Shown: positions 9,382-33,140, numbered from the stretch's first letter. The stretch: 64,000 bases of DNA from Patescibacteria group bacterium (GCA_035291665.1 DATDRP010000002.1:1085-65084); one strand, 5' to 3'. The notes: generated by a model not told the origin, from the letters alone. Numbers and translations: made by a program.

Positions 9382-10059
9382 TCATAAATACTTTTTAACA
9401 ACCACACCGTCTTTTATATAAATTTGTCTTTTTGTCCGAAGGGCAACATCGTGTTCGTGGGTTACCACGATAACAGTTACTTTGAGATCTTTATTCAAAT
9501 CTCCTAAAAGATCCATAATTTCATCACCGGTTTTGCTGTCAATGTTTCCTGTCGGTTCATCGGCAAGAATCACTTTCGGTTTCATGATGAGTGCTCTTGC
9601 AATTGCAACACGCTGCTGCTGACCGCCTGAAATTTTATTCGGGAAAAAATTTCTACGATCCCAAATTCCAAATCTTTTTAAAAGTTCGTCAGCTCTTTCC
9701 AAGGGATCAAAATCAAGTTTGACTTTTGAGTACTTGGCAGGAAGAAGAACGTTTTCGAGCACAGTAAATTTATTAATCAAATTGAACTGTTGAAAGACAA
9801 ACCCGACATTCTTATTTCTGATGTGAGAAAGCGTGTCATCATCCAATTTTGAAACGTCTTTTCCGTCCAGAAATACTTTCCCGACTGTCGGCTGTTCCAA
9901 AAGTCCTATCAGGTACATTAATGTAGATTTTCCCGATCCCGAAGAGCCCAGGATTCCGATATATTCACCATCTTCAATCTTTAAATTAACACCATTAACC
10001 GCTTTAACCTCTTCATCACCGAGGAAGTAAGATTTGCTGATATTTTGAAGCTTAATCAT
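9382..10059 (-). CDS. ABC transporter ATP-binding protein (MacB/LolD-like)
   Basis: Walker A GSSGSGKST, signature ISGGQQQRVAIARAL, Walker B ILADEPTGN. Confidence 0.85.
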   Translation of the reverse strand: MIKLQNISKSYFLGDEEVKAVNGVNLKIEDGEYIGILGSSGSGKSTLMYLIGLLEQPTVGKVFLDGKDVSKLDDDTLSHIRNKNVGFVFQQFNLINKFTVLENVLLPAKYSKVKLDFDPLERADELLKRFGIWDRRNFFPNKISGGQQQRVAIARALIMKPKVILADEPTGNIDSKTGDEIMDLLGDLNKDLKVTVIVVTHEHDVALRTKRQIYIKDGVVVKKYL

Positions 10060-14196: not shown

Positions 14197-16851
14197 TTAC
14201 TCACGGATTCTCTCCGGTAAGGGAAGTAGATTAACAATTTCCCATCCCCCGTAAAATTCGTCTTTTTTTATTTGAACATGCAAAAAGGTCCGTAAAAATT
14301 CTCTGTCATTCCGTTTTTTGAAATACAGGTCAAGCTCGGTCTTTTTATTCCGGTACAAATTTCCATCCAATTTACAATGAATAAGACCGTTTCGCTCCAA
14401 AGTTACAAAATGTGTTTGCGAAGGCTGAAAATATCTCCAAGAGGCAATGCTCCCAATTGTTTTTTGTAATTTTTTGTTCTCTTCAAATTGATAATCGGGA
14501 AATATTTCCTCTGAAGGATCACCTGTAAAACTGACACCGAAATGCTGCATTTGGTGAAGCCCCAAATCAATTGAATCAACTGCTGCATCTTTCTTCACCC
14601 ATAACAAATTGTATGCGGTTTTTTGAATGATATTTGAACCAATCAGGTCATAACCCAATATAACTTTTCCATTTTCTGAGTACGTTTTACTGAGGGTTTT
14701 TGCGGGTGTCAAAAGCCCAATCCCCGATTCTCTTCTGGCAGCATTGAGATACACTTGTAATGGATACATTCCACCTCTCCCGGTTGCTGCTCTTCTGAGT
14801 CTGGAACTCCAAAATTCTGCTGGTTCCTCTTGCTTTGAAACCATCTCATGCAAAACTTCTTCTGTTTTTGCATCAGAATGACCCCTGGCAAATCCATACC
14901 CCACCCTGAATACATCGCTGAAAAGCTGATCCGATATTCCTTTGGGGTATTTGGAAAATATTAAATTTTTAATTTTAACGAACAAAACATCCTGCTCTAT
15001 ACCCGGGAGATTTTTTGACAACATTTTCAAAACCCTGTACGAATTCTCTTCACCCAGACCTAAACTTCCGACAAGTTGCATAATTTGTTCAGGATATAAA
15101 AAAACGCCTTCCGTATTCTTTGTAATCTTGACCAATTCGGGGTAAGGAGCATATATACTTGTTATGTTTTCAATCCCCTGATAAAGAGAACTTTTCGCCT
15201 TGGCAGAAGCTGGTCGTATGCTTCCTTCGATATTTGAAAGATCTTTAAATTCAGGTTTTCTCCCCGCTTTTTTCAAAGATTTTCCCATATGATTTATGGC
15301 AAGCATTGCGGTTGGACTTTCAATGGTTCCGATTCCAATTGTTGAATTTCTATCGTAAAAAATAGAGTCCAGAGCTTTACTAATCTGTGTAGTATTTATT
15401 TCATAAGTGTTATTTACTTCTTCCACAATACCCAATCCGATATTCGTAGGGAAATCATATTTTGGTGCGTGTATCACATCTTCGGCATCTTTCTTCTGCA
15501 TCTGAAGTACACCCGAATGATATATGGGGGCAATATCAACAGCAACTACTCCGGGGTGTACTATCACTTTACCCTCAGGAATATCCGCTTTTTCAATAAT
15601 TTCTTTATCTTTGTCTTTGAGACCGGAATTCTTCAACGAATCCTTTCTTAAATGCGAAACTATTCCCAGCACATGTGTCCGACCGGAACGAGTTGCATAT
15701 TTTACGAGTTTGGGCCTTCCTGAATCTGAAACTGAGCGGTCAATATCCGGAAAATCAACCATCCCAACTGCACCCATTCTGTACTCATTGATGAACCTGT
15801 CAAAATTCGTTGCCATTGCATCACTTGTACCAAATAAAACACTCACAGCCTGGCTATTACGACCGCTACCTTCAATATTGTTTGCGATATTTTTATCAAT
15901 ACAAAATAGATGGTGATCATACGATTCCAAAATATACCCAGCCAGATTGTACTTGTTGATTAACCTAAGCTCCATATTAATTCTTTCAATTACTTCCGGA
16001 CCGACTTTTTTTTGTGAAAGTTTATTTTCAATCAAGGCTCGCAAAACCCCACCAGCGCTCATCCCGCTATCAAACCACTTCATGATCTCAGGCTCCAAAA
16101 TCTTCGGTTGGGGAATGGGAACGTTAATCCCATCAGTAATCTCAAACGAGCGCTGAATTACATCAAGCCCCAATTCATGATAAAGTTTATAAATTTCTTC
16201 TTTGTCCGGAAATGTATGGAGTTTTAGATCCAGCCCCTCATACAGCTGAGGAATACTTGGAAATGCTTTACGCAGTATTTGATAGATATGGGCATCTTTT
16301 TCAGTAGCAACAGTCGGATGTGTAAGCACAAGCTTATGGTATTTTTGTTCCAAATTAAGCAAATTCGGAAGTGTATCTTTTGAAGGTGGAGTGTCCACCG
16401 CAATAAATACACCTTTTTCTCTTAATAAACCTTCATCTTCCACGAAATTGCCTCTTACAAGAGTGATTACATCCGGCTGAATTATTTCATCCCGATTCAG
16501 ATTACGATTTTTTGAAGCCAGATCTGAAATATTTTTAAGGCCTTCGATTGATTTTGCAATGAAAGTTATTTTTTCCGGAGGTGATAAAAAGCTTCTTCTG
16601 ACAGCGGGAAGTTCAATTCCTGGAAGTGCCCTGACTTTGTTCAAATCACAAAGTGAAAGATAAGTCCAAATACCGAAAAAATTATGATCAGTCAAAGCAG
16701 AAGGAATTCCCAATCGGATTGACTCCTCAATTATGTTGAGGGGAGAAGCTGAAGCTTCGAATCTTTGTCCTTTAAAGTCTCTTATTCTGGAATATATACT
16801 GCACGTTCGAACTGCAGCATATTCGAATTGAGGTACCTTTTCCCGTTCCAT
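14197..16851 (-). CDS. family C DNA polymerase, DnaE-like, divergent and short (884 aa, degenerate PHP domain)
   Basis: GSGRNSQAVSVLFG...ATNFDRFINEYRMGAVGMVDFPDIDRS parallels the DnaE GRGSAAGSLV...LLFERFLNPER..MPDFDVDF block. PHP-like N-terminus lacks the His ladder (VRTCSIYS...TDHNFFG). A YGFARGHS block is also present. Confidence 0.55.
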   Translation of the reverse strand: MEREKVPQFEYAAVRTCSIYSRIRDFKGQRFEASASPLNIIEESIRLGIPSALTDHNFFGIWTYLSLCDLNKVRALPGIELPAVRRSFLSPPEKITFIAKSIEGLKNISDLASKNRNLNRDEIIQPDVITLVRGNFVEDEGLLREKGVFIAVDTPPSKDTLPNLLNLEQKYHKLVLTHPTVATEKDAHIYQILRKAFPSIPQLYEGLDLKLHTFPDKEEIYKLYHELGLDVIQRSFEITDGINVPIPQPKILEPEIMKWFDSGMSAGGVLRALIENKLSQKKVGPEVIERINMELRLINKYNLAGYILESYDHHLFCIDKNIANNIEGSGRNSQAVSVLFGTSDAMATNFDRFINEYRMGAVGMVDFPDIDRSVSDSGRPKLVKYATRSGRTHVLGIVSHLRKDSLKNSGLKDKDKEIIEKADIPEGKVIVHPGVVAVDIAPIYHSGVLQMQKKDAEDVIHAPKYDFPTNIGLGIVEEVNNTYEINTTQISKALDSIFYDRNSTIGIGTIESPTAMLAINHMGKSLKKAGRKPEFKDLSNIEGSIRPASAKAKSSLYQGIENITSIYAPYPELVKITKNTEGVFLYPEQIMQLVGSLGLGEENSYRVLKMLSKNLPGIEQDVLFVKIKNLIFSKYPKGISDQLFSDVFRVGYGFARGHSDAKTEEVLHEMVSKQEEPAEFWSSRLRRAATGRGGMYPLQVYLNAARRESGIGLLTPAKTLSKTYSENGKVILGYDLIGSNIIQKTAYNLLWVKKDAAVDSIDLGLHQMQHFGVSFTGDPSEEIFPDYQFEENKKLQKTIGSIASWRYFQPSQTHFVTLERNGLIHCKLDGNLYRNKKTELDLYFKKRNDREFLRTFLHVQIKKDEFYGGWEIVNLLPLPERIRE

Positions 16852-16904: not shown

Positions 16905-16949
16905 ATAACTCCATGCAACTGCACACCCTTAGGGTGATACATGCGTACA
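16905..16949 (+). repeat. REP-A element (CACCCTTAGGGTG hairpin plus ACACCCTTTACCC) 3' of the RAYT gene
   Basis: gcaactgcacacccttagggtgatacatgcgtacaccctttaccc. Near-identical copy at 19395-19440. Confidence 0.7.
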
Positions 16950-16963
16950 CCCTTTACCCAAAC

Positions 16964-17629
16964 TCAATCAATTAATAAATATTTAATATTTCCAAGTTTC
17001 CGTTGATAATCAACTTGATTAGCTACAAATTTTCGATACATTAATCTTGAGCCTATAATTTCAAGAATTAGTTTTGAATCTACAAGGGTCTCTTTTTTAC
17101 CGAGATAAATCGGAAATGAGGTTAAGACGCTGTCTTTTAATTCTTTTGTATCCATTAAGTATGATGTCACCGGATTCAAATGGATGTATCTGGATACATG
17201 AAGCAGGGTTTCATCACTGCTGATATGCTTAGCTTTAAACGGATTTTGAAATAGTGAACCATGTCTTTTGTTTTTAACATTAAAATATTTTGCATAGCTA
17301 TTTTGGAAATTCGATAAAAAATTGCGGATTCCATTTTCAGCTGTTTGTCTGAGAAGTAAATGAAAATGATCAGGCATAAAACAGTACGCGTAAATTTCTA
17401 CAATCTTTTTATCAAATGAATTATTTTTAAGATAGTCCAGTTTCTGAAAATCTTTTAATTTATTGAAAAAGGAGTACCTTATAGTTTGCTCATAATGGTA
17501 AAAGGAAATTAAATTTAGAGCTCTTTCTATGTCTCTTTTCTTCGAGAAAGTCCATTCATTGGCAGTTGTCCTATTGTAAACATGGTAGGTTTCACCATTT
17601 GCAAACACAAGGTTGCGTTTTCTCGGCAT
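16964..17629 (-). mobile_element. REP-associated tyrosine transposase (RAYT, IS200-like Y1 HuH transposase)
   Basis: YHVYNRT N-terminus, HuH motif MPDHFHLLL, catalytic Tyr motif SRYIHLNPV. Flanked on both sides by inverted REP-A copies. Confidence 0.75.
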
Positions 17630-17646
17630 AGAAGATTTATAATTTA

Positions 17647-17767
17647 TTTTACAGATTTGGGGGTAGGGTGTAAATACAATTTCACCCTTGGGGTGTAAGG
17701 ATTTATTATTTTACAGATTTGGGGGTAGGGTGTAAATACAATTTCACCCTTGGGGTGTAAGGATTTA
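17647..17767 (+). repeat. tandem duplication (2 x about 61 bp) of REP-A in inverse orientation, 5' of the RAYT gene
   Basis: ttttacagatttgggggtagggtgtaaatacaatttcacccttggggtgtaaggattta appears twice head-to-tail. Its reverse complement matches the 16905 copy. Confidence 0.75.
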
Positions 17768-18354: not shown

Positions 18355-19188
18355 TTAGTTGGCTTTTTTACGAAGCGCAACTCCTGCACTTGTCAGAAGT
18401 AGTGAAGCTGCAAAGACTGAGTATAAAATAGCTGAATTTCCGGTTGTTGCCAATCCGAGGACCGATCCGCCTCCGATTACTCTGTTTGAAGAAGGTTCAG
18501 ATGGCATACAATTATTGACTGCGTAGACAACAAAGTAATAGGTTGCATTAGGATCAAGAGCCTCAACTGTATAGCTGGTTACGTTTCCGGTATTAGGTAC
18601 ACCGTAAGGGTATTCTCCCAATTTTGTTCCGTAAGCCAGTGTGTAATGAGTGGCAAATTCCTCTTTTGTCCAGGTTATGGTTGCTTTACTTCCTGACTTT
18701 ACGACTGAAAGGATTTCAGGTGCATCCGGCCTTCTTGAATCACAAACCGGTGCTCCGGGAGGATTGTGCGGAGGATTGTCAGGTGGATTTGATTTGCAGC
18801 TATAATTGGCATTTTGGGCCAAATAAGGTGAGGATTCCAATCCCCAATCTGCTCCTGACGGAACGTAGTACCAACCAAGTTTTGTTAAAATATCAATTGC
18901 TGTTTGTTCAAGAGAACTAATTTTCCACCAATTTGTTTGAATTCCGCTTCCGTCTTCAGCACAAAAACACTGAATAAGATTCTCTCCTGTGTAATATACT
19001 GCATCCGACCCGCTGACACCTGTTTCACGGCCGACAATATAATGAGTTCCTGAGTCATAACTTACTTTTTTTGTCCCTTGGGGATTTGAACATGAAGGAA
19101 AGCTTGGTGCCTCAGTTGCTGAAACTGCTGCGGCCAAGACAAATACTAAGATCACCTGTGCTACGATAAATGCGACTCTTTTCAACAT
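18355..19188 (-). CDS. secreted fibronectin type III domain protein with LAxTG-like (LATTG) C-terminal sorting signal
   Basis: Signal peptide, Pro-rich linker, FN3 domain (ATITWTKEEF...YYFVVYAVN). C-terminus LGLATTGNS, hydrophobic stretch, then RKKAN. Confidence 0.6.
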   Translation of the reverse strand: MLKRVAFIVAQVILVFVLAAAVSATEAPSFPSCSNPQGTKKVSYDSGTHYIVGRETGVSGSDAVYYTGENLIQCFCAEDGSGIQTNWWKISSLEQTAIDILTKLGWYYVPSGADWGLESSPYLAQNANYSCKSNPPDNPPHNPPGAPVCDSRRPDAPEILSVVKSGSKATITWTKEEFATHYTLAYGTKLGEYPYGVPNTGNVTSYTVEALDPNATYYFVVYAVNNCMPSEPSSNRVIGGGSVLGLATTGNSAILYSVFAASLLLTSAGVALRKKAN

Positions 19189-19394
19189 AAATTTTGTTTT
19201 TCTGGGCAGAAAACAGGGTACTAACTAACTATGGCGGAATTATATAACATTATAGGAAGTTATGTCAAGTATTTTATATATCTTGATATATCGACTATCA
19301 ACCAGTCTGGGATCAACATACAATGAGTGAGATACAAATAAATTTTTAATATAGGCTTATACTATTATATATACTTATCTCAAACACCATAATT

Positions 19395-19440
19395 GCACAC
19401 TTGCACACCCTTAGGGTGAAACATGCGTACACCCTTTACT
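19395..19440 (+). repeat. REP-A copy
   Basis: gcacacttgcacacccttagggtgaaacatgcgtacaccctttact. Confidence 0.7.
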
Positions 19441-19485
19441 CTCCGCATATAAACTTGATCATAACCTGAACGATTGAGGGTTTTC

Positions 19486-19528
19486 GGGGTAAAGGGTGTA
19501 AATATAATTTCACCCTTGGGGTGTAAAT
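19486..19528 (+). repeat. REP-A copy, inverse orientation variant
   Basis: ggggtaaagggtgtaaatataatttcacccttggggtgtaaatg. Pairs with the 19395 copy in a BIME-like arrangement. Confidence 0.65.
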
Positions 19529-19535
19529 GCATTGC

Positions 19536-20699
19536 TCACAACTCACAACTACTGACACTCTCTCCGTTTACGCACTGATCCGTATCTGAATTTCCATGAA
19601 GCGTATCCGTTTCGGTTCCTCCATCCAGAAAATCATTTCCTGAGTTTCCTCTCATCGTGTCGTTACCCGCTTCACCATAAACCTTATCGTTATCTGACCC
19701 CCCCCGAAGCTCATCATTCCCGGCTCCCCCGTAAATTTCATCATTTCCTGACTCACCGTCAATATTATCCTGTCCCTCGCCACCTTCAGCGTAGTCGTCA
19801 TCTGATCCGAGATCAATATTATCGTTTCCCAAACCTCCGTACGCTTTATCCTTCCCTGAACCTGTTTCTATTTTATCGTTCCCTTCCCCACCATAAACCG
19901 TGTCATTGCCATACCCGCCGTCTATCTTGTCATTTCCCGGTCCTCCCAAAATTACTTCATCGCCGGATTCACCGACCAGGTGGTCGTTTCCCTCACCGCC
20001 AACAATACAATCACTATCACTACTGGCCCAAACTTTATCATTTCCCCCATATGCCAGGATTAACTCCGGTTGAACCGACCCGTAAATACGCTCACTTTCG
20101 TCAGTTCCTTCAACAATCCTGCCAAAAGTCATATGCCGACACTCGGGTGGAATTTTATTGTCAGAAATTTCAGTCGACCAGGACAAATCAAATTTCAACC
20201 TGGCATTTTGATATTCATTACCCGCTTCGGGAGGAAATTTGACCGTCATACAAAAAGCTCTTTCCTGACCGGGATCAAAATTGCCCAAATTTACAGCTTC
20301 AAGCTCATCAAAAAAATTACGCATTGTCTTGAAGCCGTTTGATCCTCCATAAAAATCACCAAATCCGGTTTCATCAACAATCACTTCCAGTATTCCAGAA
20401 AAATCCTTCTCTTCGGATCCGAATATCGCTCGCATCAATACATCAAATGACTCAGTTTCATTTACATTTTTTATCTTGAAGCACCTCTTTTCAACGTCCC
20501 CCGGCTTCATGTCATCAAGTGTAAAAATGGGATCAGGCACTCCGCCACCTTCGTAAGTTACTTCAATAAGATCAACCTCCTCCACCTCGCTTGCTTGAGC
20601 CTGTTTTATAACAGTCATCACTCCGTAGGCCACAAATGGAAGCAACAATAATAACAATATTCTCTTATTCATTTTTATTCTATTTATTAGTTTCAGCAT
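19536..20699 (-). CDS. secreted RTX-type calcium-binding repeat protein
   Basis: Signal peptide. C-terminal half is about 12 tandem GGxGNDxI-type nonapeptide repeats (GGEGNDHLVGESGDEV..GGPGNDKIDGGYGNDTVYGG...). Confidence 0.7.
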   Translation of the reverse strand: MLKLINRIKMNKRILLLLLLPFVAYGVMTVIKQAQASEVEEVDLIEVTYEGGGVPDPIFTLDDMKPGDVEKRCFKIKNVNETESFDVLMRAIFGSEEKDFSGILEVIVDETGFGDFYGGSNGFKTMRNFFDELEAVNLGNFDPGQERAFCMTVKFPPEAGNEYQNARLKFDLSWSTEISDNKIPPECRHMTFGRIVEGTDESERIYGSVQPELILAYGGNDKVWASSDSDCIVGGEGNDHLVGESGDEVILGGPGNDKIDGGYGNDTVYGGEGNDKIETGSGKDKAYGGLGNDNIDLGSDDDYAEGGEGQDNIDGESGNDEIYGGAGNDELRGGSDNDKVYGEAGNDTMRGNSGNDFLDGGTETDTLHGNSDTDQCVNGESVSSCEL

Positions 20700-23308: not shown

Positions 23309-24667
23309 CTAAGTACCCGGCAGTTCTGTACCACAAAACGTTTGGACACCATCCAAATCATATGCATCTGCCGTAGCTTCGAAAAGACTCTTATCGCTTT
23401 CGTCGGTAATTCTCAGGTATGCTGCCCAGGGTAGCCCTGATGTACTCAAGTCCAAAAATGAATCCCGAGCGGTACTAGCAGAAACTACGAAAAAGTTGAC
23501 TCCGTTCTGACTGGCTTCAACTTTGATCTTTTCATCGGGATAAACTCCTCCCGTTACTTCAAAGACCCTGAAGTCAAAACCCGCCATATCAACTATCGGA
23601 TTTGCAAAAGATAACACAATATTTCCTCCGCCTATATTTTCAGCTCCAAATCCCAAGCTGAAAAAAGTATCTGCAATAACTGGTGAATCTGAAGGAGCAC
23701 CCGTACTTTCCGGAGCACCCAGTGCATCATTCGGATCATCTCTATCTGCCAAAACTGCCGTCCCGTCTTTACGTAATCCTTGAGCAGACGACACAACACC
23801 TGTTGCGTATCCGGGGATACAAGCCACAGGAGTCGGTGTAACCGTTATTTCAGGAGGATTGCAAAGGAACCGGTCGTTATGTCTTGCTTGTTCAGCAAAA
23901 AACGTTAAATCAACCATAAAGTTATCTGTTTGAGATTGATTATCCAGTCCCGATCCATCACAAGTGAAACCACTACCTCTGTCATCGGGGGTACCATCTC
24001 CTTGTTGCAGCGGTGTTTCACCGATATCTCCATAACAGAAATATTTTGCTATATAGAATTTTTCAGGACCAATTGGCCCAAATGACCCACCGGAATCCCC
24101 TTTCAACCATTTTTCCTGTCCACCGAAAACGCTGAGAGCGTTGCCTCGTGTCAATACTTCTTCTTCTGTTTCAAATACATTATCTCCGTCATCTATCCAA
24201 AACACGAAGTTCAAATTTTGACCCAGCTCCCCAAGGTTTTCACCGGGATCTTGACATAATCCATTCTCATCAAGCATTTCGGGTTCGGTACAAGAAAGAT
24301 CGTTGTTTGCAGTAACTTTGAAGTCTCCGCAAAGCCATGCTGGATTGGCGACAGAAAACGAAATTGTGTCTTCTTCCCAATCGCCAGGCTTTAGGTCATG
24401 CAGATCAAAAAAAAGTTCTCCATCCAAACTTTTAGACCGCCATGTGCAGGAACATTCGTTCCCATCTTTATTTTCTCCATCCCAAAAACCTTCAATACAG
24501 GCATTCCCATTGTAATAACAAGTGTTATCAATCTCCAAATCAATTGCACCTGCTTGAAACAGGTTTCCGGATGAAGTTTCTTCATCAGAGAAGAAAGCTC
24601 CGGTCACCGCAAATGCGGTTAATCCAATTAATCCAAGTGTTATCAAACTAAATAATATTTTTTTCAA
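23309..24667 (-). CDS. secreted TasA/camelysin-like protein with SipW-cognate signal peptide, TTG start
   Basis: AFAVTGAFFSDEETSSGNLFQAGAIDL. Paralog of the 25152-26306 protein (shared NFVFWIDDGDNV, GSGFTCDG, QTDN..DL.FFA.Q.R.N..FLC). Start codon TTG at 24665-24667 preceded by AGGGAGGAGGTGA. Confidence 0.65.
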   Translation of the reverse strand: MKKILFSLITLGLIGLTAFAVTGAFFSDEETSSGNLFQAGAIDLEIDNTCYYNGNACIEGFWDGENKDGNECSCTWRSKSLDGELFFDLHDLKPGDWEEDTISFSVANPAWLCGDFKVTANNDLSCTEPEMLDENGLCQDPGENLGELGQNLNFVFWIDDGDNVFETEEEVLTRGNALSVFGGQEKWLKGDSGGSFGPIGPEKFYIAKYFCYGDIGETPLQQGDGTPDDRGSGFTCDGSGLDNQSQTDNFMVDLTFFAEQARHNDRFLCNPPEITVTPTPVACIPGYATGVVSSAQGLRKDGTAVLADRDDPNDALGAPESTGAPSDSPVIADTFFSLGFGAENIGGGNIVLSFANPIVDMAGFDFRVFEVTGGVYPDEKIKVEASQNGVNFFVVSASTARDSFLDLSTSGLPWAAYLRITDESDKSLFEATADAYDLDGVQTFCGTELPGT

Positions 24668-24856: not shown

Positions 24857-24914
24857 CACACCCTACGGGAGAAATCCTTATTAGATATTTCAAAGGTATT
24901 TCACCCCAAGGGTG
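24857..24914 (+). repeat. REP-B element (about 57 bp)
   Basis: cacaccctacgggagaaatccttattagatatttcaaaggtatttcaccccaagggtg. Confidence 0.7.
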
Positions 24915-24927
24915 TTTAAATTTTTAA

Positions 24928-24970
24928 TTTTATTCCGGGTTTCGGAGGGGCAAGCCTCCCGAAACCTTTG
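24928..24970. repeat. 11-bp-stem hairpin (ggtttcggagg...cctcccgaaacc)
   Basis: Inverted repeat read directly from the sequence. Sits in the 480-bp hairpin-dense spacer between the two TasA-like genes. Confidence 0.4.
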
Positions 24971-24996
24971 TCAAACTCTTTTTAAGGATTTTGCCA

Positions 24997-25032
24997 CCCC
25001 TGTGAGATAGTTTTTCACCACCTCACGGGGTG
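24997..25032. repeat. family C hairpin copy
   Basis: cccctgtgagatagtttttcaccacctcacggggtg. Confidence 0.45.
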
Positions 25033-25054
25033 ACTGAATTTTTCAAATTTTCTC

Positions 25055-25092
25055 CGACGAAGTAACGATTAACGTACTTCACGGAGTCCCGT
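25055..25092. repeat. family C hairpin copy
   Basis: cgacgaagtaacgattaacgtacttcacggagtcccgt. Confidence 0.45.
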
Positions 25093-25151
25093 AAGATATT
25101 AATTTATCTTACTGGGAGAAATTAGATTCCTTAACTAACTTCCTTGCGTGA

Positions 25152-26306
25152 CTAATTCGGTGCACAATCCAAATGAAAAGTGATACTGTTTCCCAAACTA
25201 TCTACCAAATCATGCACAACGTATCCTGTTTCACCAGCTGGGAATGTGTAATGTGGATAAACCGGATAGTTAAATCCATCCACTGCTAGAGCTCCTGGTT
25301 TAGCCATTCCATTACCTCCAACCAGATTAAGGCTTGAGTCGATTCCCCCACCGACAACATGTGTTCCGGCAGGACACGACCAACCAGCCCAACCTCCATC
25401 GCCAAATCCATCTTGAGTCCTACTTATTCTTGTAGGTTCAACAGGCCAAGTTGGTTTCCAATCAGAACAAAGGAAATTCGGATTGTTCCTGTGTTGGACC
25501 GCGTAGAATTGCAAATCACCGACAACTATGTCTGTTTGAGCTGCATTGTCTACTGGTTCGCCATCACAAGTGAATCCTGTTCCTCTTGCCAATGGACCGT
25601 TAGTTGCACCTTCAAGTTTTCCTTGTCCATCTTGAGCAACCGGATTTCTGGCTAAAGTTCCAAAACACCAGTATTTCCCGATGTGTACGGTTTCTCCACC
25701 TGGAAGAGGATTACCAGTACTCTGATCAGCCAATGCAATTTGACCCGAATCACCCATTCCACTCAGTGGTCCACTTAAGAACACACTTTCTGGACCGTTT
25801 TCCCCAATTTCGTAAACATTATCTCCATCATCCCACCAGAATACGAAATTCACTTCTTCGTCCAGTTCGCCATCTTCAAGTAATGGGTCTGCCCCGACTG
25901 TTAGATCGTCTCCAGTTTCAGGTTCAGTGTAAGTGTTGTCATTGTCATCTGTCAGCCTTGCAGCTGCACATACCCATGCATCATTATTATTTACATGAAC
26001 CGAAATTGTGTCTTCACCGTAATCTCCCGGTTTAAGATCAACAAAGTCAAAGAATTTTTGAACTGTTAAGTCCGCCAATTCCCATGATGTATTTTTACTT
26101 GCAACAAAAGCACCAATTGGTCTTTCGTATCCAGGAATGTTCCAATCGATTGCATAGCTTTCGTTATCGATCAAAAGGTCAATTGCACCTGCAACAAATG
26201 TATTTCCAGTTGATGTCTCTTCATCAGAGAAGAATGCACCGGTTGCGAGAACCGCACCTATTGCAACTACTCCGATAGAAAACGCACTTAATAAAATTTT
26301 TTTCAT
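25152..26306 (-). CDS. secreted TasA/camelysin-like protein with SipW-cognate signal peptide (paralog)
   Basis: MKKILLSAFSIGVVAIGAVLATGAFFSDEETSTGNTFVAGAIDL. Start taken at ATG 26304-26306 with SD AAAGGAGGTGA; the ORF track extends it to 26354. Confidence 0.65.
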   Translation of the reverse strand: MKKILLSAFSIGVVAIGAVLATGAFFSDEETSTGNTFVAGAIDLLIDNESYAIDWNIPGYERPIGAFVASKNTSWELADLTVQKFFDFVDLKPGDYGEDTISVHVNNNDAWVCAAARLTDDNDNTYTEPETGDDLTVGADPLLEDGELDEEVNFVFWWDDGDNVYEIGENGPESVFLSGPLSGMGDSGQIALADQSTGNPLPGGETVHIGKYWCFGTLARNPVAQDGQGKLEGATNGPLARGTGFTCDGEPVDNAAQTDIVVGDLQFYAVQHRNNPNFLCSDWKPTWPVEPTRISRTQDGFGDGGWAGWSCPAGTHVVGGGIDSSLNLVGGNGMAKPGALAVDGFNYPVYPHYTFPAGETGYVVHDLVDSLGNSITFHLDCAPN

Positions 26307-26317
26307 ATATTTCACCT

Positions 26318-26338
26318 CCTTTCTTCTTCGAAGAAAGG
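26318..26338 (-). promoter_or_regulatory. 5'UTR hairpin whose 3' arm overlaps the Shine-Dalgarno sequence of the TasA-like gene
   Basis: cctttcttcttcgaagaaagg gives a 9-bp perfect stem. On the mRNA its 3' arm continues directly into AGGAGGTGA. Confidence 0.45.
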
Positions 26339-26384
26339 AACCCGTTGGATGCATTTATGCTATCCAACTGGGTACCTCCTCCCC

Positions 26385-26420
26385 CTAAGAGATAGCTCCT
26401 GCGGAGCATCTCATGGGGTC
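26385..26420. repeat. family C hairpin copy
   Basis: cctaagagatagctcctgcggagcatctcatggggtc (GAGATaGCTCC / GGAGCaTCTC stem). Confidence 0.45.
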
Positions 26421-26513
26421 TTCGACCTAATTTTTAAATAAACAACCCATAATCATTTAGTAATATTCTTATTTAAATAATTTTTAATTCTGTTTTTGAT
26501 ATACCTCTTTCCC

Positions 26514-26556
26514 TTCCAGTGAAGTAGTCTTTCCGAGACACTTCACGGAATCACGT
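26514..26556. repeat. family C hairpin copy
   Basis: ttccagtgaagtagtctttccgagacacttcacggaatcacgt. Confidence 0.45.
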
Positions 26557-26575
26557 TAGATGTGCGAAGCACTAT

Positions 26576-26836
26576 CTAACTGTGACCACCAAAATAGTTT
26601 TTCAATCTACCTTTGATATACCGTTTTCCCCAAGCACTTTTTAGATAAACTTCCCTTTTATATGCATCTTTTAAATTTAATGATGCTTCGTAATAAACAA
26701 GTTTAAAAGGTCTCCTAAATTTCGTCGCTTTCACTAACCCTTTGTTGTGTCGTTCTAACCGTTTCTTTAAATCGTTTGATGTTCCTGTATATAACTTTTT
26801 ATCCTTCAAACTCTGTAATACATATACAAAATACAT
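26576..26836 (-). CDS. GIY-YIG nuclease domain protein (small, Slx1/YhbQ-like)
   Basis: MYFVYVLQSLKDKKLYTGTSNDLKKRLERHN is the GIY...YIG motif with the following Arg/His. Confidence 0.7.
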   Translation of the reverse strand: MYFVYVLQSLKDKKLYTGTSNDLKKRLERHNKGLVKATKFRRPFKLVYYEASLNLKDAYKREVYLKSAWGKRYIKGRLKNYFGGHS

Positions 26837-26875
26837 ACAGTAAAATGCATACCCTTTACCCCTTGCGCTTAACTC

Positions 26876-26932
26876 TCACCCTTCGGGAGAAATCCTTATT
26901 CTATATTTAAAGGTATTTCACTCCAAGGGTGG
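26876..26932 (+). repeat. REP-B element
   Basis: tcacccttcgggagaaatccttattctatatttaaaggtatttcactccaagggtgg, preceded by a REP-A fragment (accctttacccc). Confidence 0.7.
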
Positions 26933-27226
26933 TTATTTTATTAAACCCAGCTCACGTTTTCTTTGTTCTTCTTGTCTTTTATATTCTGCAATTTGCCGAT
27001 CCTGTTCTTGTGATAATTCATTGCGAACAATTTGCAATCTGGCAATAGCTAAATATTTATTTCCCTCGATTCCCGCTTCTCTTACTCTGGCAGATTCTTC
27101 CAAATTACCTTGCTCATTCAACAAGGCTTCATATTCTTTCAAAATAACGCTATCCTGTCTCCGGCATACTTCCGCAATTTTGTATATCATCGGATTATTT
27201 TCTCCTTCGAATTTAATTCCTACCAT
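26933..27226 (-). CDS. hypothetical small protein (97 aa), paralog of 27319-27588
   Basis: N-terminus MVGIKFEGENNPMIYKIAEV compared with MARIKNEGEKNPFEAKMEEV in the neighbour. Confidence 0.4.
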   Translation of the reverse strand: MVGIKFEGENNPMIYKIAEVCRRQDSVILKEYEALLNEQGNLEESARVREAGIEGNKYLAIARLQIVRNELSQEQDRQIAEYKRQEEQRKRELGLIK

Positions 27227-27245
27227 AGGATATGTTTTTTTATAC

Positions 27246-27302
27246 TCACCCTTCGGGAGAAATCCTTATTCTAAATTTCTTGGTATTTCACCCCAAGGGT
27301 GG
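27246..27302 (+). repeat. REP-B element
   Basis: tcacccttcgggagaaatccttattctaaatttcttggtatttcaccccaagggtgg. Confidence 0.7.
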
Positions 27303-27318
27303 TTATGTCAGCAGTAAT

Positions 27319-27588
27319 CTATTTTCGAAAACTCTTTTCAACTGTTATTCCCGGTTCTGCTGAATTCAATTCATCAAAAGCTATCCGGCTTTTTGCGATT
27401 GGCAAGGTCAAGGCAAGTTGAATCATAAGCTTCCCTATCAATGCCGCGTTAGTGAAATCTTTATTTTTTACTAATATACGTTTATATTCTGACAAAATCT
27501 CTTGAGCAGACCTCTGACTCACTTCTTCCATCTTTGCCTCAAATGGGTTCTTTTCTCCTTCATTTTTTATTCTTGCCATAACATTCAC
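27319..27588 (-). CDS. hypothetical small protein (89 aa), paralog of 26933-27226
   Basis: See the paralog. Flanked by REP-B on the 3' side and a REP-B half-site on the 5' side. Confidence 0.4.
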   Translation of the reverse strand: MNVMARIKNEGEKNPFEAKMEEVSQRSAQEILSEYKRILVKNKDFTNAALIGKLMIQLALTLPIAKSRIAFDELNSAEPGITVEKSFRK

Positions 27589-27595
27589 CTCTTTA

Positions 27596-27612
27596 TTTCA
27601 CCCCAAGGGTGG
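27596..27612 (+). repeat. REP-B half-site (tttcaccccaagggtgg)
   Basis: Matches the 3' arm of REP-B. Confidence 0.5.
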
Positions 27613-27633
27613 TTATTTGTACCGCTTCCAACT

Positions 27634-27661
27634 AAAAAACCCCAACGTTCGCTGGGGTTTT
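27634..27661. terminator. bidirectional rho-independent terminator-like hairpin
   Basis: aaaaaaccccaacgttcgctggggtttt: GC stem flanked by an A-run and a T-run. Confidence 0.5.
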
Positions 27662-27847
27662 AATGTTTGTATTAGGTTGAATTGGCCGCAGAAGGAATGT
27701 GGAGTATTGAGGCAGAAACTATCAGTCATAGTTATTCTTTATACAAAGCGTATATAGTTTTGTCAATAGGTCTTTCTATATAAATCTTATAGTTATCTTA
27801 ATGGGGATATATACTAATGATTCTTTCTGCCCTAAGTATCCCATAGG

Positions 27848-28432
27848 TTGTATTTGAAAACTAGCCAATGTAAAATACGCATCATGTCAAAAGAAAATAT
27901 TGAAAATGCATTCGATCAGCTTTTTAATGCTGATCCTAAAATTGCATACAATTATTTGGACAGGATTAACTTGGCAATTTTAAAAACCAGACATGCCCTT
28001 GATAACGGCTATCCCGGATGTGTCACGAGTACTGTTGCGTTTACACATCTTGGTGTAGCGGACAATTTTAACTACAATTCCACATTCCGTATAATCGATA
28101 TTGTAAATATGTCATTGGAAGTGTCCAAACTTTCTAAAGAAAAATTAAACCAAACATCCTTCCACGTATATGATCCTATATCTTCCGAAAAAATAAAATC
28201 AGCTCTGGGTAAATTTCATTCTGCATGGATAACCAATTCAAAAATAAAATCATCCGATTGCGGACATATGATTGGCTTAATACCGGGAAGGTTTTCGGGT
28301 GAGTTAATTATCTGGGATACAATGATGAAGTTTCTTTGTAACCAAACATACAACTATGAATCATTAATACTTGGAATCGAATCCGTAATAGACGAAAAGG
28401 ATAACTTCGGAACAATATTAACTTTCAAGTAG
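27848..28432 (+). CDS. hypothetical protein with conserved Cys...His...Asp signature, paralog of 28662-29267
   Basis: Shared blocks C(V/T)S(S/T)(V/I)AFTH, SAW(I/L), GH(M/L)IGL, (I/V)WDT(M/T)M(K/N)F. No known family recognised. Confidence 0.5.
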   Translation: MYLKTSQCKIRIMSKENIENAFDQLFNADPKIAYNYLDRINLAILKTRHALDNGYPGCVTSTVAFTHLGVADNFNYNSTFRIIDIVNMSLEVSKLSKEKLNQTSFHVYDPISSEKIKSALGKFHSAWITNSKIKSSDCGHMIGLIPGRFSGELIIWDTMMKFLCNQTYNYESLILGIESVIDEKDNFGTILTFK

Positions 28433-28435
28433 AAC

Positions 28436-28476
28436 TCCACACCCTAAGGGTGAAATTGTACTCACACCCTTTACCC
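28436..28476 (+). repeat. REP-A variant
   Basis: tccacaccctaagggtgaaattgtactcacaccctttacccc. Confidence 0.65.
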
Positions 28477-28490
28477 CGATCGTTAACATT

Positions 28491-28547
28491 CACCCTACGG
28501 GAGAAATCCTGATTCTATATTTAAAGGTATTTCACCCCAAGGGTGGT
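28491..28547 (+). repeat. REP-B element
   Basis: caccctacgggagaaatcctgattctatatttaaaggtatttcaccccaagggtgg. Confidence 0.7.
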
Positions 28548-28661
28548 TGGGGTGGTGTAGTTAAAACCATTTGTAAAAATTACCCCGACCAGAAATTATT
28601 TTTGATCGTAAATATGTTATAGGGTATAATACGTTTATTATAATAAAATCCAAACCCCCGG

Positions 28662-29267
28662 GTGGATTATAGCTATCATGAGTGGTATGATATTGCCTTA
28701 ATTATTAATATGGGAAAAGAATATCCCAAAGGATTTGATGAATTGAGAAAAACGCAAAATTATATTCTCGCTTTATCATTCTGCGACAGGCAACGTCAGG
28801 GTATCAAAGCAGCTGAAAAGTGTATTGACAATGAATTGGGTTCCATATGTGTTAGTTCATCAATTGCTTTCACCCACCCGAGAGAAAAAATTAATCAGCT
28901 TGATTATGTAAAAGTTTTGTATGGGCAAATATCCAGTATCGCTGCCTCAGTAGCTCTTAATCATATCCAAACATCAACACAGGTTCCATTTGATTCAAAA
29001 AATCCGCTCAAAACAAAGGTTTTTACTACTGCGCTCGATGAAGCCGTATCTGCTTGGATTTTATGGCATGGTCCAGAAGTTAAAGGGCACCTGATAGGTT
29101 TGGTTAAAGCAAGGACATCAGATGAATATTTTGTCTGGGATACTACAATGAATTTTAAATTTGAAAACCTGTATTCAACTTCTGATGTACTCAAAATTTT
29201 AGATTCTCAGCTGAAACGGAAGCAATATGAAGGAAAAGTCATTTCATTCAGAAATTTACCTACCTGA
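28662..29267 (+). CDS. hypothetical protein with conserved Cys...His...Asp signature (paralog)
   Basis: See 27848-28432. Confidence 0.5.
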   Translation: MDYSYHEWYDIALIINMGKEYPKGFDELRKTQNYILALSFCDRQRQGIKAAEKCIDNELGSICVSSSIAFTHPREKINQLDYVKVLYGQISSIAASVALNHIQTSTQVPFDSKNPLKTKVFTTALDEAVSAWILWHGPEVKGHLIGLVKARTSDEYFVWDTTMNFKFENLYSTSDVLKILDSQLKRKQYEGKVISFRNLPT

Positions 29268-29275
29268 AAAGAACT

Positions 29276-29316
29276 ACACACCCTAAGGGTGAAATTGTAT
29301 TCACACCCTTTACCCC
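29276..29316 (+). repeat. REP-A variant
   Basis: tacacaccctaagggtgaaattgtattcacaccctttacccc. Confidence 0.65.
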
Positions 29317-29328
29317 GTTCTTAAACAT

Positions 29329-29385
29329 TCACCCTTCGGGAGAAATCCTTATTCTAAATTTCTTGGTATTTCACCCCAAGGGTGG
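29329..29385 (+). repeat. REP-B element
   Basis: tcacccttcgggagaaatccttattctaaatttcttggtatttcaccccaagggtgg. Confidence 0.7.
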
Positions 29386-29393
29386 TTGAGTAT

Positions 29394-29789
29394 TCACCAG
29401 TTTCGTCCAGTGGAATTATTAATAGTGGGGCGGTAACCTCTAATTGGGACTTCATTTACAAAAAAAGATTTATTACCTTTATTCATTTCAAAATGAAAAT
29501 GTGCTGTATGACCCGCTCTTGGTTCCGTAGTAATTTGCCAATCACCATTTGAGTTAAAAATAACATTGCGATAAGTAACTCTGGCATCCACAGAATAATG
29601 CTTTTTACCCTCGTCGACTTCAACTGAACCGATAGGTTTGTACGCCCTAAGAAGCCCAGACGAAGCTTTTTTTGGAAACGGACATGGACCACATTCAAGT
29701 CCACGCTGACAAATATCATTTAAAAAAGGACACCAGAATTCTTTCGCCATATTAATGCAAATTATAACAATGAAAACCGGATAAATCAA
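29394..29789 (-). CDS. small M23 (LytM-type) metallopeptidase domain protein with Cys-rich N-terminus
   Basis: HYSVD (HxxxD) followed by GHTAHFHFE (HxH). N-terminal CPFLNDICQRGLECGPCPF. Confidence 0.55.
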   Translation of the reverse strand: MIYPVFIVIICINMAKEFWCPFLNDICQRGLECGPCPFPKKASSGLLRAYKPIGSVEVDEGKKHYSVDARVTYRNVIFNSNGDWQITTEPRAGHTAHFHFEMNKGNKSFFVNEVPIRGYRPTINNSTGRNW

Positions 29790-29814
29790 TATTATAGGCT
29801 GTATTACAACATAA

Positions 29815-29872
29815 TCACCCTTCGGGAGAAATCCTTATTCTATTTTTCTTGGTATTTCACCCCAAGGGTGGT
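29815..29872 (+). repeat. REP-B element
   Basis: tcacccttcgggagaaatccttattctatttttcttggtatttcaccccaagggtggt. Confidence 0.7.
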
Positions 29873-29933
29873 CCTACAGGTAGACAGCGCAGCAAAAAGT
29901 TGACTTACCACAAGCTAGTCGTAAAATATCTTC

Positions 29934-30821: not shown

Positions 30822-33140
30822 TTACTTTCCCGATACAGCCTTCAGAAGGAGAAGTTTTTTCTTTAAGATGAACGCTCCCGGGATCAAAGGAAGTCCCAAA
30901 AGGGCATATGCCAAATTAATTCTGACTTTATTTGCAGTTTGCGCTCCTTCAACAACTCCGCCTGTTGTTTCGTCAGACGCTGCATCTGCCAGAAGCGATC
31001 CTCCGCCAATTCCTGTTCCGAAAGCTTTTGGTTTGGTGAAGATTGCGCTTACCAAGGTTGTTGCAACACTTCCTCCGCTGGAACCCGATCCGCCTGAATT
31101 GTTTCCGCTACCTCCTCCTGATCCTCCGCCGCCATTGCCTACCGGATTTGTGACAGGATCAGTGGTCGGATCCAAAATTCCGGGATCTCCTCCTCCAATT
31201 GCCGGTTCCGGATCTGGTTCCTGTTCAAACCCGGGTGGAACAATATCACCCAACCAGCTACCGAATACATTTACAACCGTGACAAAGAGCTTGCCTGTAC
31301 CTATAATATTATTGTTCACAAAGTTGACTATGTTGGCAACTATCTTCGCATCTCCCGTTACTATTGATGAACCACCCATATTCTTCTCAGCTGAGTTGTC
31401 GCCTGTATTTGCGGTGAGAACTACGTTATTAACAACATTGGCGTTGTTGACTTGCGTGAATGTATCGTTATCGTTAACCGTCACATTAGTCGTGTTTACC
31501 GAATCGGTTCCATTGCCATCATTGACTGCCAAAATATCACCCGCATCGTTGACGATAAATTCAAATCCTTCAGAACCCGCCAGGTTGGAACCGTCGCCGC
31601 CGATAATTTTACCTATCCATTTCCCTGCTTCATTAACGATCACCAACCATGCATTTCCACCAATAATATTGGTGTTGGCAACATTCAGAACCTGCGCCAC
31701 AATCCCGGCATCTCCGCTTGTGATGGACGTGTCTCCACCCATGACTTTCGAAAGTCCGTTGTCGCCGGTTGAGGCATCGTAATAAAGATTGTTGTCGATG
31801 TTTGCATTGTTCAGTTGGTTAATAAGATCACTCTGGTTGATATCAACATTTGCAGTATTTGTGGAACCTGAATTATTATTTGTATTTGCTACGGTTACAT
31901 CGGATCCTGTGCAGCAGGCTTCAAGCATCCCGACCGGGATAATAATATCTCCGACCAAGTTTCCGAAAATATTGACAACCGCATAGACAACATCTCCGGC
32001 AATGTTGTTGTTTACCATGTTTACAATATTCGCCTCAATATTGGCATCTCCGGTTGTTATCGAAGCTTCACCCATATTTTTGTCAGCCTCGTTTTTGCCG
32101 GTAATGGCGGTCAATACCATATTGTTTTCCACATTGGCGTCATTCTGCTGGAACGTTGTATCGTTGTTGTTGACTTCCAAATTTCCGGTATTGGTTGAGT
32201 CGGAACCATTTCCGGTATTCAAAACAGCTATCTCTCCCGTACCGCAATTAGAAATGCAGCTATCGGCAAAATTAAGAATAATATCTCCAACCTGATCATC
32301 GACAACGTTAAACTCGGAAACCATAATCCCATCGATATTGGTGTTAACAGCATTAATAATCGTTCCTGTAACATTGGCATCTCCTGTTGTGATTTGTGCA
32401 TCTCCCATATTTTTTTCTACCAGGTTGTTTCCGGAATCCGAAACGTTGTCCATATTGTTTACAACGGTAGTCGTATTTGTCTGAGAATGATTGGAGTCGT
32501 TGTTGATTGTGGCTGAACCGGTATTCGTACTGCCTGTGCCGTTCCCTGAGGATTTGACAACAATTCCGCCGTCAACTCCTGTGTCTGAAGATGTCAAAAC
32601 ATTTTCAATTCCCGTATTTATTATCGCTCCGGTATTATCCGCATTGCCGGTTACAATTGAGGCGTTACCCATTAAGTCGCTTTGAACTTCATCGCCAGTC
32701 GACTGAACAACGGGGGCTACAAGCCCGGAGGAAGTAAGCGGTCCTGGGATTTCCGCTGTCGAAGTCTGAACCGGCTCTTCAGAAGTCGCCGGTGAAGTTG
32801 GTTCTTCCGTAGTTGTTTCTTGGTTTGGTCCTTCCTGAGTTTGTGGAATTTCCCCGGAGGATGTTCCTTCTCCGCTAACAGCTGGCTCTGTTGTCTGATC
32901 CGTACCGTAAACCGGCGCATCGGGTGCAATCGGCGCATTGCTCTCATAAGTTGGTGCATCGGGGGCTGTTGGCACTGATGGGGTATCGCCTTCATACGTT
33001 GGTGCCGTTGGCGCTTCAGGCGCACCCGGGGGAGTTGGAACTGCATAGGTATATCTGGCTCCATTTAAGATTACCATCATAGCAACCAAATAGATTGCAA
33101 CTACCCTTTTGACTATTTTCTTATTAAAAAACTTCCTCAT
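30822..33140 (-). CDS. large secreted N/T/G/S-rich repeat protein (4 x about 110-aa repeats, PT-rich N-terminal linker, Gly-rich C-terminal stalk, hydrophobic tail)
   Basis: Signal peptide MRKFFNKKIVKRVVAIYLVAMMVILNGARYTYA, APxAPTYE repeats, then four repeats sharing NTGNGSDSTNTGN...ANV.NN..L.A.TG.N.A.KNMG.A.ITTGDA.I.ANIVN.VN.NI.G. C-terminus GGGGSGGGSGNNSGGSGSSGG, hydrophobic stretch, KKK. Confidence 0.65.
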   Translation of the reverse strand: MRKFFNKKIVKRVVAIYLVAMMVILNGARYTYAVPTPPGAPEAPTAPTYEGDTPSVPTAPDAPTYESNAPIAPDAPVYGTDQTTEPAVSGEGTSSGEIPQTQEGPNQETTTEEPTSPATSEEPVQTSTAEIPGPLTSSGLVAPVVQSTGDEVQSDLMGNASIVTGNADNTGAIINTGIENVLTSSDTGVDGGIVVKSSGNGTGSTNTGSATINNDSNHSQTNTTTVVNNMDNVSDSGNNLVEKNMGDAQITTGDANVTGTIINAVNTNIDGIMVSEFNVVDDQVGDIILNFADSCISNCGTGEIAVLNTGNGSDSTNTGNLEVNNNDTTFQQNDANVENNMVLTAITGKNEADKNMGEASITTGDANIEANIVNMVNNNIAGDVVYAVVNIFGNLVGDIIIPVGMLEACCTGSDVTVANTNNNSGSTNTANVDINQSDLINQLNNANIDNNLYYDASTGDNGLSKVMGGDTSITSGDAGIVAQVLNVANTNIIGGNAWLVIVNEAGKWIGKIIGGDGSNLAGSEGFEFIVNDAGDILAVNDGNGTDSVNTTNVTVNDNDTFTQVNNANVVNNVVLTANTGDNSAEKNMGGSSIVTGDAKIVANIVNFVNNNIIGTGKLFVTVVNVFGSWLGDIVPPGFEQEPDPEPAIGGGDPGILDPTTDPVTNPVGNGGGGSGGGSGNNSGGSGSSGGSVATTLVSAIFTKPKAFGTGIGGGSLLADAASDETTGGVVEGAQTANKVRINLAYALLGLPLIPGAFILKKKLLLLKAVSGK

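Follow-up and report, generated by a model that had tools for sequence, protein, structure and literature searches.

A gene for a REP-associated tyrosine transposase (RAYT; REP, repetitive extragenic palindrome) with its repeats, a REPtron, is reportedly recognised by a working definition said to go back to Nunvar in 2010 and to Bertels and Rainey in 2011, namely flanks that are inverted repeats of one family, a single-copy gene, and tens to hundreds of extragenic copies genome-wide. Work on REPs and RAYTs has so far been carried out almost wholly in Proteobacteria. The element described here lies in a Patescibacteria (candidate phyla radiation, CPR) bacterium with a small genome, at positions 16905-17767 of a 64-kb stretch (DATDRP010000002.1:1085-65084; hereafter the window), which is part of a contig of ~516 kb; with 10 kb added per side, 81.8 kb were examined. 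It consists of a gene for a 221-amino-acid (aa) HUH/Y1 protein set between inverted hairpin arms, the same architecture in the very small and dense genomes of Patescibacteria. Two REPtron features are observed, the inverted flanks of the same family and the location of the gene at one locus (10 contigs; one tblastn match and no second copy in the window, one copy in the 82 kb examined). We consider it probable that this is a REPtron or TIRtron (TIR, terminal inverted repeat), that is, a stationary single-copy HUH/Y1 gene between its cognate inverted hairpin arms, which are occasionally copied elsewhere. A RAYT/REP interpretation made earlier from the window alone, called here the original prediction, is supported by our data, with qualifications on the protein type, the foot of the repeats, their local spread and activity.

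Four described systems are close to this locus. The REPtron of Escherichia coli RayT (YafM; Group 2, TnpA_REP subclass 2.2) shares with it the HUH/Y1 fold (4er8_A is the best structural match), the single-copy gene, the inverted hairpin flanks and the intergenic copies, some of them inverted doublets. RayT differs by its length (165 aa), by its sequence (25% identity over 95 columns in hhalign, where the HuH and Y motifs align), by its motifs (DHLH/WE/YIHYNP, PMC6006769 Table 1, instead of DHFH/FQ/YIHLNP) and by its proteobacterial host; unlike the E. coli REPs, the repeats here have no GT[AG]G foot and are made of a 5-bp stem with a 3-nt loop followed by a second half-stem copy. The TIRYT/TIRtron units (Di Nocera 2013, PMC3733652) resemble the locus in their motifs, in protein length (~220-240 aa), in the position of the gene between long inverted repeats, some with self-complementary tracts, and in their moderately abundant copy families, found as singles, dimers or clusters. 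In contrast to these units, the published TIR motif GGGGWSAS has no match in the arm sequences (GGGGGTAGGGTGT and GGGTAAAGGGTGT), the closest string being GGGGTGT, and no C-terminal helix-turn-helix (HTH) of the Bac_DnaA_C/HTH_23/HTH_28 type was detected by Pfam in 32 members at E up to 1. The REPINs (REP doublets forming hairpins) of Pseudomonas and Enterobacteria (Bertels and Rainey 2011) consist of two inverted units forming one long imperfect hairpin, as do the doublet at 19403-19526 and the REP-B units described below, and their RAYT gene also lies between inverted arms; published populations reach tens to hundreds per genome (bioRxiv 10.1101/2021.07.10.451892), whereas one REP-A doublet and 6 REP-B units within 27 kb are found here. 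Finally, the IS200/IS605 TnpA proteins (IS608, ISDra2) share the catalytic fold, the HuH and Tyr motifs and the hairpins beside the gene, but the locus has Y...NP instead of Y...Q, a single-copy gene, no tnpB and inverted-repeat arms. The architecture is thus already known from REPtrons, TIRtrons and REPINs; what is new is the CPR host, the presence of hairpin repeats around a gene whose protein has the motifs of subclass 2.1, the three-part arm without GTAG, and the breadth of the comparative support. A literature search for RAYT or REP in CPR bacteria found nothing relevant among the papers searched.

The HUH/Y1 protein and its flanking arms

The original prediction had placed here a minus-strand protein of 221 aa with HuH and Tyr motifs, and this was confirmed: the open reading frame (ORF) 16964-17629 encodes MPDHFHLLL (residues 85-93) and RYIHLNPV (residues 147-154), in which H88 and H90 form the HuH pair and the Y-motif YIHLNP contains the catalytic Tyr, Y148. 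The similarity to Y1_Tnp that the prediction had proposed to check is also present, since the protein passes Pfam PF01797 with 39.6 bits for a cut-off of 23 (E 6.7e-10). The same family is matched by 32/32 aligned homologues (49-64% identity), in which H88, H90, Y148, N152 and P153 are invariant. Searching the PDB by sequence gave merely marginal matches to ISDra2 with the protein itself (E 0.005), and spurious ones to CdtB with the family profile, so that a fold search was needed. With the AlphaFold model (predicted local distance difference test, pLDDT, of 88; C-terminal residues 153-219 helical), the top Foldseek match in the PDB was 4er8_A, a complex of the E. coli RAYT and a REP hairpin (E 6e-7), followed by the IS608 and ISDra2 TnpA, and the best 30 PDB matches were all RAYT or IS200/IS608/ISDra2-type transposases.

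An NCBI protein named "transposase [Patescibacteria group bacterium]" is 100% identical to that of the window, and annotation pipelines give the gene merely this name, "transposase". More than 1,275 relatives of ~221 aa were found, the named ones belonging to Microgenomates, Woesebacteria or Patescibacteria. Counted as representatives of 50%-identity clusters in an exhaustive search, the family has 195 members at E <=1e-30, or ~200 clusters, and 3,726 at E <=1e-10. In a search of 5.8 billion sequences the next-closest protein after the identical ones shows only 64% identity, so that there are no near-identical copies of the gene, and the 10/10 contigs that carry the identical protein share one gene neighbourhood. 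No tnpB is adjacent to the gene among the neighbours examined.

The flanking repeat, REP-A, is ~45 nt long and reads ACACCC-N3-GGGTG, 10-11 nt, ACACCCTTTACCCC; in each arm, therefore, a half-stem X and its complement X' enclose a 3-nt loop, and X is repeated beyond a spacer of 10-11 nt. On the + strand the 3' arm reads TGC ACACCC TTA GGGTG ATACATGCGT ACACCC TTTACCC, and on the gene strand the 5' unit reads CTT ACACCC CAA GGGTG AAATTGTATTT ACACCC TACCCCC AAATCTG TAAAAT. As the arms read in this way, the two flanks of the gene are inverted repeats with their tails toward the gene. Neither GTAG nor GTGG stands beside the stem, where (T/C)(G/T/A)(C/T)A is found on one side and an A/T-rich sequence on the other. 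One REP on the 3' side and two head-to-tail copies in reverse complement on the 5' side, as originally predicted, are all present (Table 1); the two 62-nt units are 100% identical, with the reverse-complement REP at 17650-17698 and 17712-17760. Across this tandem duplication the JGI assemblies L001 and L003, both from other samples, are 100% identical to the window; the duplication is thus genuine and not an artefact of a single assembly. A third assembly (L002) ends inside the 62-nt repeat, which illustrates a practical consequence of such repeats, the breaking of assemblies.

Each 5' arm copy also carries TTTACA-17-TAAAAT on the gene strand, and a TTGACA-like hexamer is found at the same place in 19/25 related 5' arms. 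From these consensus matches, the 5' arm would supply the gene with a sigma-70-like promoter, which may be used and autoregulated. The 5' arm hairpin with its A/T-rich tail was flagged as terminator-like.

Table 1. Gene, arms and repeat units, with positions counted from the first letter of the window.
Feature	Position	Strand	Remarks
Gene for the 221-aa HUH/Y1 (IS200-like fold) protein	16964-17629	-	Pfam Y1_Tnp; invariant catalytic residues; AlphaFold pLDDT 88; top PDB match 4er8_A
3' arm, REP-A type 1 (loop TTA, spacer ATACATGCGT)	16920-16963	+	Abuts stop codon, tail toward gene; nhmmer E 8e-13
5' arm, proximal 62-nt copy, REP-A type 3 (loop CAA)	17644-17705	-	Holds TTTACA-17-TAAAAT, which ends 16 nt before ATG
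5' arm, distal 62-nt copy, identical to proximal	17706-17767	-	Overlaps stop codon of upstream sortase ORF
REP-A type 1, loop TTA (10-nt spacer)	3' arm, 19405+, 43812-		
REP-A type 2, loop TAA	28439+, 29278+		
REP-A type 3, loop CAA	Both 5' arm copies, 19524-		
Inverted REP-A doublet (REPIN-like)	19403-19526	.	Type 1 arm 19403-19448 (+), type 3 arm 19483-19526 (-), tails inward
REP-A type 2 (28438-28485) then REP-B (28490-28550)	28438-28550	+	Starts 6 nt past stop of ORF 27848-28432
REP-A type 2 (29276-29322) then REP-B (29329-29390)	29276-29390	+	Starts ~10 nt past stop of ORF 28662-29267
Solo REP-A type 1	43770-43814	-	Between ORFs 43135-43662 and 43817-44890
REP-B, quasi-palindromic inverted pair of short arms (hairpin + AAAT)	24858-24918	+	
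REP-B	26876-26935	+	Degenerate 3' half of REP-A (26845-26868) before it
REP-B	27246-27307	+	Fold -11/-13 kcal/mol, z -3/-4
Partial REP-B, right arm only	27594-27616	+	E 2e-5
REP-B	29815-29874	+	

Conservation of the arms in related loci

The comparative set, which yielded our strongest new evidence, comprised the loci of four close homologues and of 80 more distant ones (33-48% identity) from metagenomes. The close homologues each lie in a different gene neighbourhood and all have the same layout, with a small perfect palindrome of ~8-10 nt followed by (T)TGACAC(C) upstream, and an inverted copy immediately 3' of the stop. Where both flanks were available (60 loci), a perfect palindrome of >=5 bp with the same inner stem was present on both flanks in 37 loci, compared with 0.0 in shuffled flanks, and by eye the remaining loci mostly carry imperfect versions. 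The hairpin ends at a median of 43 nt before the ATG for the 5' arm and 23 nt past the stop for the 3' arm. Nine inner stems were found according to lineage (CACCC, CACCT, AACAC, AACCT, AAAGC, CACAC, CGATC, CGAGC and GAAGC), and self-complementarity is kept throughout. The original prediction had looked to hairpin conservation outside the window, and it is borne out on this point with stems that are specific to each lineage.

Since the arms were picked for their palindrome, the inner five pairs would be a circular test of pairing and were not used as one; the unselected outer stem, positions 6-8, was used together with the shuffled-flank control. These positions pair in 72, 63 and 46% of arms, respectively, against 25% by chance. 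The X 5-mer (the inner left half-stem) occurs again 6-12 nt away on the gene side in 26/103 arms and on the outer side in 5, for ~2 expected by chance. A fixed position with a self-complementary stem that varies by lineage is what co-evolution of a protein with its hairpin substrate would be expected to produce.

Upstream of the gene in unrelated lineages (L120, ~9870-9930; L148; L154; L157; L179), the left half-stem or the whole 5' arm is likewise partly or completely duplicated in tandem, as in L148 with GAGATTCGCCACCT GAGATTCGCCACCT GAAAGGTG; these cases parallel the 62-nt duplication of the window. Read toward the gene, the 5' and 3' arms have loops that are reverse complements of each other in seven loci (L131, L132, L133, L141, L156, L157 and L164) and identical loops in others, and in the window the loops flip as well, TTA in type 1 (16933-16935) being the reverse complement of TAA in type 2 (28449-28451). 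This points to a loop whose sequence goes unread, or to strand switching mediated by the palindrome. In some relatives two diverged paralogues of the gene lie within 8 kb (L027, 27-461 and 6606-7268; L116, 2-385 and 4929-5396), with 39-51% identity to the query.

Repeat families and their spread

The window has 8 matches to ACACCC-N3-GGGTG-N8-13-ACACCCT (16923+, 17696-, 17758-, 19405+, 19524-, 28439+, 29278+ and 43812-), compared with 0.00 in shuffles, and 14 to the bare hairpin CACCC-N3-GGGTG, for 0.03 expected. A profile built from the copies retrieved exactly 8 full REP-A (E 1e-12 to 2e-15), 6 full REP-B and one partial REP-B from the 81.8 kb, every unit being intergenic. The recurrences that had been predicted at 19395, 19486, 28436, 29276 and 43775 are thus all real, as is the second family, REP-B, whose six full copies and single partial one are spread over 24858-29874. 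REP-B reads CACCCTWCGGGAGAAATCC, ~18 nt, GGTATTTCACCCCAAGGGTGG, an inverted pair of short arms each made of a hairpin and AAAT; it stands directly after a REP-A unit twice, and its profile also matches its own reverse strand. Scanned in full against Rfam, the window gave no match at the gathering score of any family, and the repeats therefore do not belong to a known RNA family.

The doublet at 19403-19526 is a REPIN arrangement. It has 97% identity to the 3' arm and repeats the pair of arm types found around the gene, likewise oriented, with a separation of ~35-45 nt against 666 nt. As single-stranded DNA (ssDNA), 19395-19540 forms a single long hairpin (-27.4 kcal/mol, z -5.7), and the fold energy of the REP-B units is -11 to -13 kcal/mol (z -3 to -4). 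In the predicted fold of single REP-A units, GGGTG pairs with the downstream CACCC and not with the upstream one; the X/X'/X layout therefore permits two alternative hairpins. The edges of solo copies are sharp, ~3 nt ahead of ACACCC on one side and directly behind ACCCC(G) on the other.

Solo copies starting <=21 nt past the stop of a co-oriented ORF number 12/41, at 28438, 29276, 43814 and 19526 in the window and in L015, L043, L073, L089 and L092. Classical REPs are likewise reported to lie just past stop codons. The idea that solo REPs serve in general as portable promoters was rejected, as a -10-like box together with a rightly placed downstream ORF exists in a minority only.

Copies of the arms away from the gene also exist in some relatives. 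An extra arm copy was found within 6-10 kb in 6/34 related loci; the metagenome-assembled genome (MAG) CAYWKL01 holds at least 8 copies of the variant ACACCC TCC GGGTG RTTTAGCTTK ACACCC TTTCT on at least 6 contigs, and a Daviesbacteria scaffold has arm copies ~15 and ~120 kb from its gene. The matches listed in the pattern scan of genome contigs include ~100 chance matches in high-GC genomes and do not extend to the source genome itself. From these counts, copying of the arm away from the gene appears to recur in the family, and to be frequent only in some lineages, that of the window included. A separate observation concerns MAGs titled "uncultured Gammaproteobacteria" (L033, L043, L059, L073, L077, L095, L103 and L109 of CAYWKL01; also L028, L066, L032), which have 34-44% GC and carry a CPR-type gene (41-42% identity) with its repeat on many contigs; their taxonomic label looks doubtful.

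Nature of the element and alternative explanations

In the mechanism that we propose for a REPtron or TIRtron here, the 221-aa protein would most likely recognise the arm hairpin in ssDNA and cut beside it through Tyr148, with the metal held by His88/His90. Re-ligation after the cut would leave occasional arm copies at new intergenic sites, as solo units, tandems or inverted doublets, while the gene itself would stay in place. Because the 5' arm carries the putative sigma-70-like promoter, binding to the arm could also regulate the expression of the gene. Binding to ssDNA, the chemistry and site of cleavage, and the mobilisation of the arms by this protein are all taken here as presumed activities.

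Several observations weigh against this interpretation, and they begin with the type of the protein. In the NCBIfam equivalog model NF047646 (REP_Tyr_transpos, cut-off 80 bits), the protein scores 51.3 and four relatives 44-55, compared with 179 for E. coli RayT; being below the threshold of canonical RAYTs, it is not of the canonical E. coli or Pseudomonas type. The consensus of its family is MPNHFHLLL, LFQ and SRYIHLNPV with ~221 aa, i.e. NH[FY]H, FQ and Y[IV]HLNP, the window protein having D for N in the first motif (DHFH), and the class-2 Y-motif Y-x3-N-P, as defined in PMC6006769, is present and invariant (Y148-I-H-L-N152-P153). For TnpA_Y1 subclass 2.1 the published row is NH[YF]H, FQ, Y[IV]HLNP and ~238 aa (PMC6006769, Table 1, Quentin et al. 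2018), and that paper treats this subclass as the same as Group 1 of Bertels and as most of the "TIRYTs" described by Di Nocera et al. in 2013. By motifs alone, compared by eye with that table, the protein matches subclass 2.1 / Group 1 / TIRYT. The literature does not provide REPs for this subclass: no REP-like hairpins were reported for subclass 2.1 (PMC6006769), whereas the hairpin is nearly universal in the family studied here, whose assignment is motif-based only, and the REPIN link held for Group 2 and 3 RAYTs only (bioRxiv 10.1101/2021.07.10.451892).

The repeats add further difficulties. As ssDNA, a REP-A unit on its own gives only a weak fold (~-6 kcal/mol, z -0.2 to -2.1). In the 81.8 kb examined, the 15 hairpins are confined to 16.9-43.8 kb, with 13 in a span of 13 kb, and no REP copy was found in the other 55 kb, which include the 10 kb added per side; the family may thus be clustered here and not spread over the genome as a population. 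In most relatives the two flanking arms are the only ones seen. No presence/absence polymorphism of any repeat was seen among four assemblies, which are 100% identical, and in a further comparison of assemblies (100% or 99.95% identity) the differences lie outside the repeat region only. Finally, cleavage and transposition are inferred rather than directly evidenced.

Part of the original prediction has consequently to be restated. Its identification of the protein as a RAYT agrees with the best fold match, 4er8_A, and with the inverted, recurring flanks, and disagrees with the score of 51 bits for a cut-off of 80 and with the lack of the GT[AG]G foot. Hairpin folding is clear for the doublet and for REP-B and weak for single REP-A units. 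Its "dispersed" repeats are real intergenic recurrences; since all copies lie within 27 kb, the word means local so far. An "active or recently active" system would be in agreement with the intact gene, the exact duplication and the 97%-identical copies, and receives no support from insertion polymorphism among the assemblies.

Three other explanations could account for part of the data. The gene and its two arms could together be mobile as an autonomous insertion sequence (IS) of the IS200/IS605 type, the solo arms and doublets being deletion derivatives that use its transposase in the manner of miniature inverted-repeat transposable elements (MITEs). The arms do bracket the gene as tightly as IS ends, the doublet at 19403-19526 resembles the unit minus its gene, every homologue lies in a different gene neighbourhood, and some 8-kb loci hold two paralogues (L027, L116). 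The ends of the element are inverted repeats, however, whereas the end hairpins of IS200/IS605 elements lie on the same strand. The occurrence of one locus in all 10 contigs and one copy in 82 kb, a next protein at only 64% identity and the absence of an adjacent tnpB also argue against a mobile gene, and the L027 paralogues are merely 39-51% identical to the query. The Y-motif, moreover, is that of class 2 (Y...NP) and not the Y...Q of IS200 (PMC6006769 Table 1). Taken together, these data make an autonomous IS unlikely.

It is quite unlikely that the protein is a HUH enzyme domesticated for a host function that has nothing to do with the spread of repeats; its arms would then be only binding or regulatory sites, and the extra copies would come from local duplication or recombination. 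Such a host function has been proposed for Group 1 RAYTs. It would suit the motif set of a subclass reported as REP-less (PMC6006769), the two flanking arms that are all that most relatives possess, and the clustered, partly tandem copies of the window. The copy at 43.8 kb and those of relatives on other contigs or ~100 kb away are nevertheless not local duplications, and the solo copies have the sharp boundaries expected of a mobilised unit. It is very unlikely that the arms are ordinary regulatory hairpins (terminator, promoter, operator) of the gene and its neighbours, and the other copies similar terminators rather than products of the protein. The terminator-like 5' arm followed by a promoter-like site is what this explanation would predict, and so are the 12 solo copies that follow closely on a co-oriented stop. 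It does not account for the ~45 nt common to the copies, which include non-hairpin parts at up to 97-100% identity, nor for a sequence that varies with the lineage of the protein while its position is fixed; the element is also inverted on the two flanks, and therefore in the wrong direction for a terminator on one side, and no T-run is present in the 3' arm when it is read on the gene strand. The arms could, however, both serve in regulation and be mobilised.

A wider proposal can be made tentatively: a large CPR-wide Y1 branch with the "REP-less" 2.1/Group 1 motifs may have almost all of its members between co-varying, promoter-supplying arms, and these arms may have seeded REP/REPIN-like families in some lineages, including this one. 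If this wider proposal is true, partnerships between REPs and transposases extend beyond the Group 2/3 RAYTs of large proteobacterial genomes and would persist also in the streamlined ~1 Mb genomes of episymbionts. The co-varying arms provide a map of the important nucleotides (a free stem, a fixed spacing and a repeated half-stem), which could guide a first biochemical test of an enzyme of the subclass-2.1 type.

Around the element, the gene has a sortase ORF upstream and, on its other side, the ORF 14197-16851 (-), of 884 aa, with a weak match to PF07733 (DNA_pol3_alpha), which may encode a divergent polymerase-like protein. Between the REP-A doublet and an fn3-domain ORF (18355-19188), 5' of the latter, stands a perfect TTGACA-18-TATAAT at 19239-19268 (-). 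The neighbouring ORFs 23309-24667 (-) and 25152-26354 (-) share stretches of ~71-72% identical DNA and are likely paralogues; the spacers of their gene array hold REP-B units. Repeats of 128-140 nt with a spacing of 270-696 nt, at 31305-34505, are located inside the ORFs 30822-33140 (-) and 33354-34739 (-) and are probably encoded repeated protein domains, unrelated to the REPs. Just past the right end of the window (~71-73 kb), two assemblies that are 99.95% identical over 18.6 kb diverge at one end (L207 1-2198, L208 1-2119), where one has small HTH and weak Terminase_2-like ORFs and the other HAD/NUDIX and RNase_T genes; this end may be a strain-variable mobile element.

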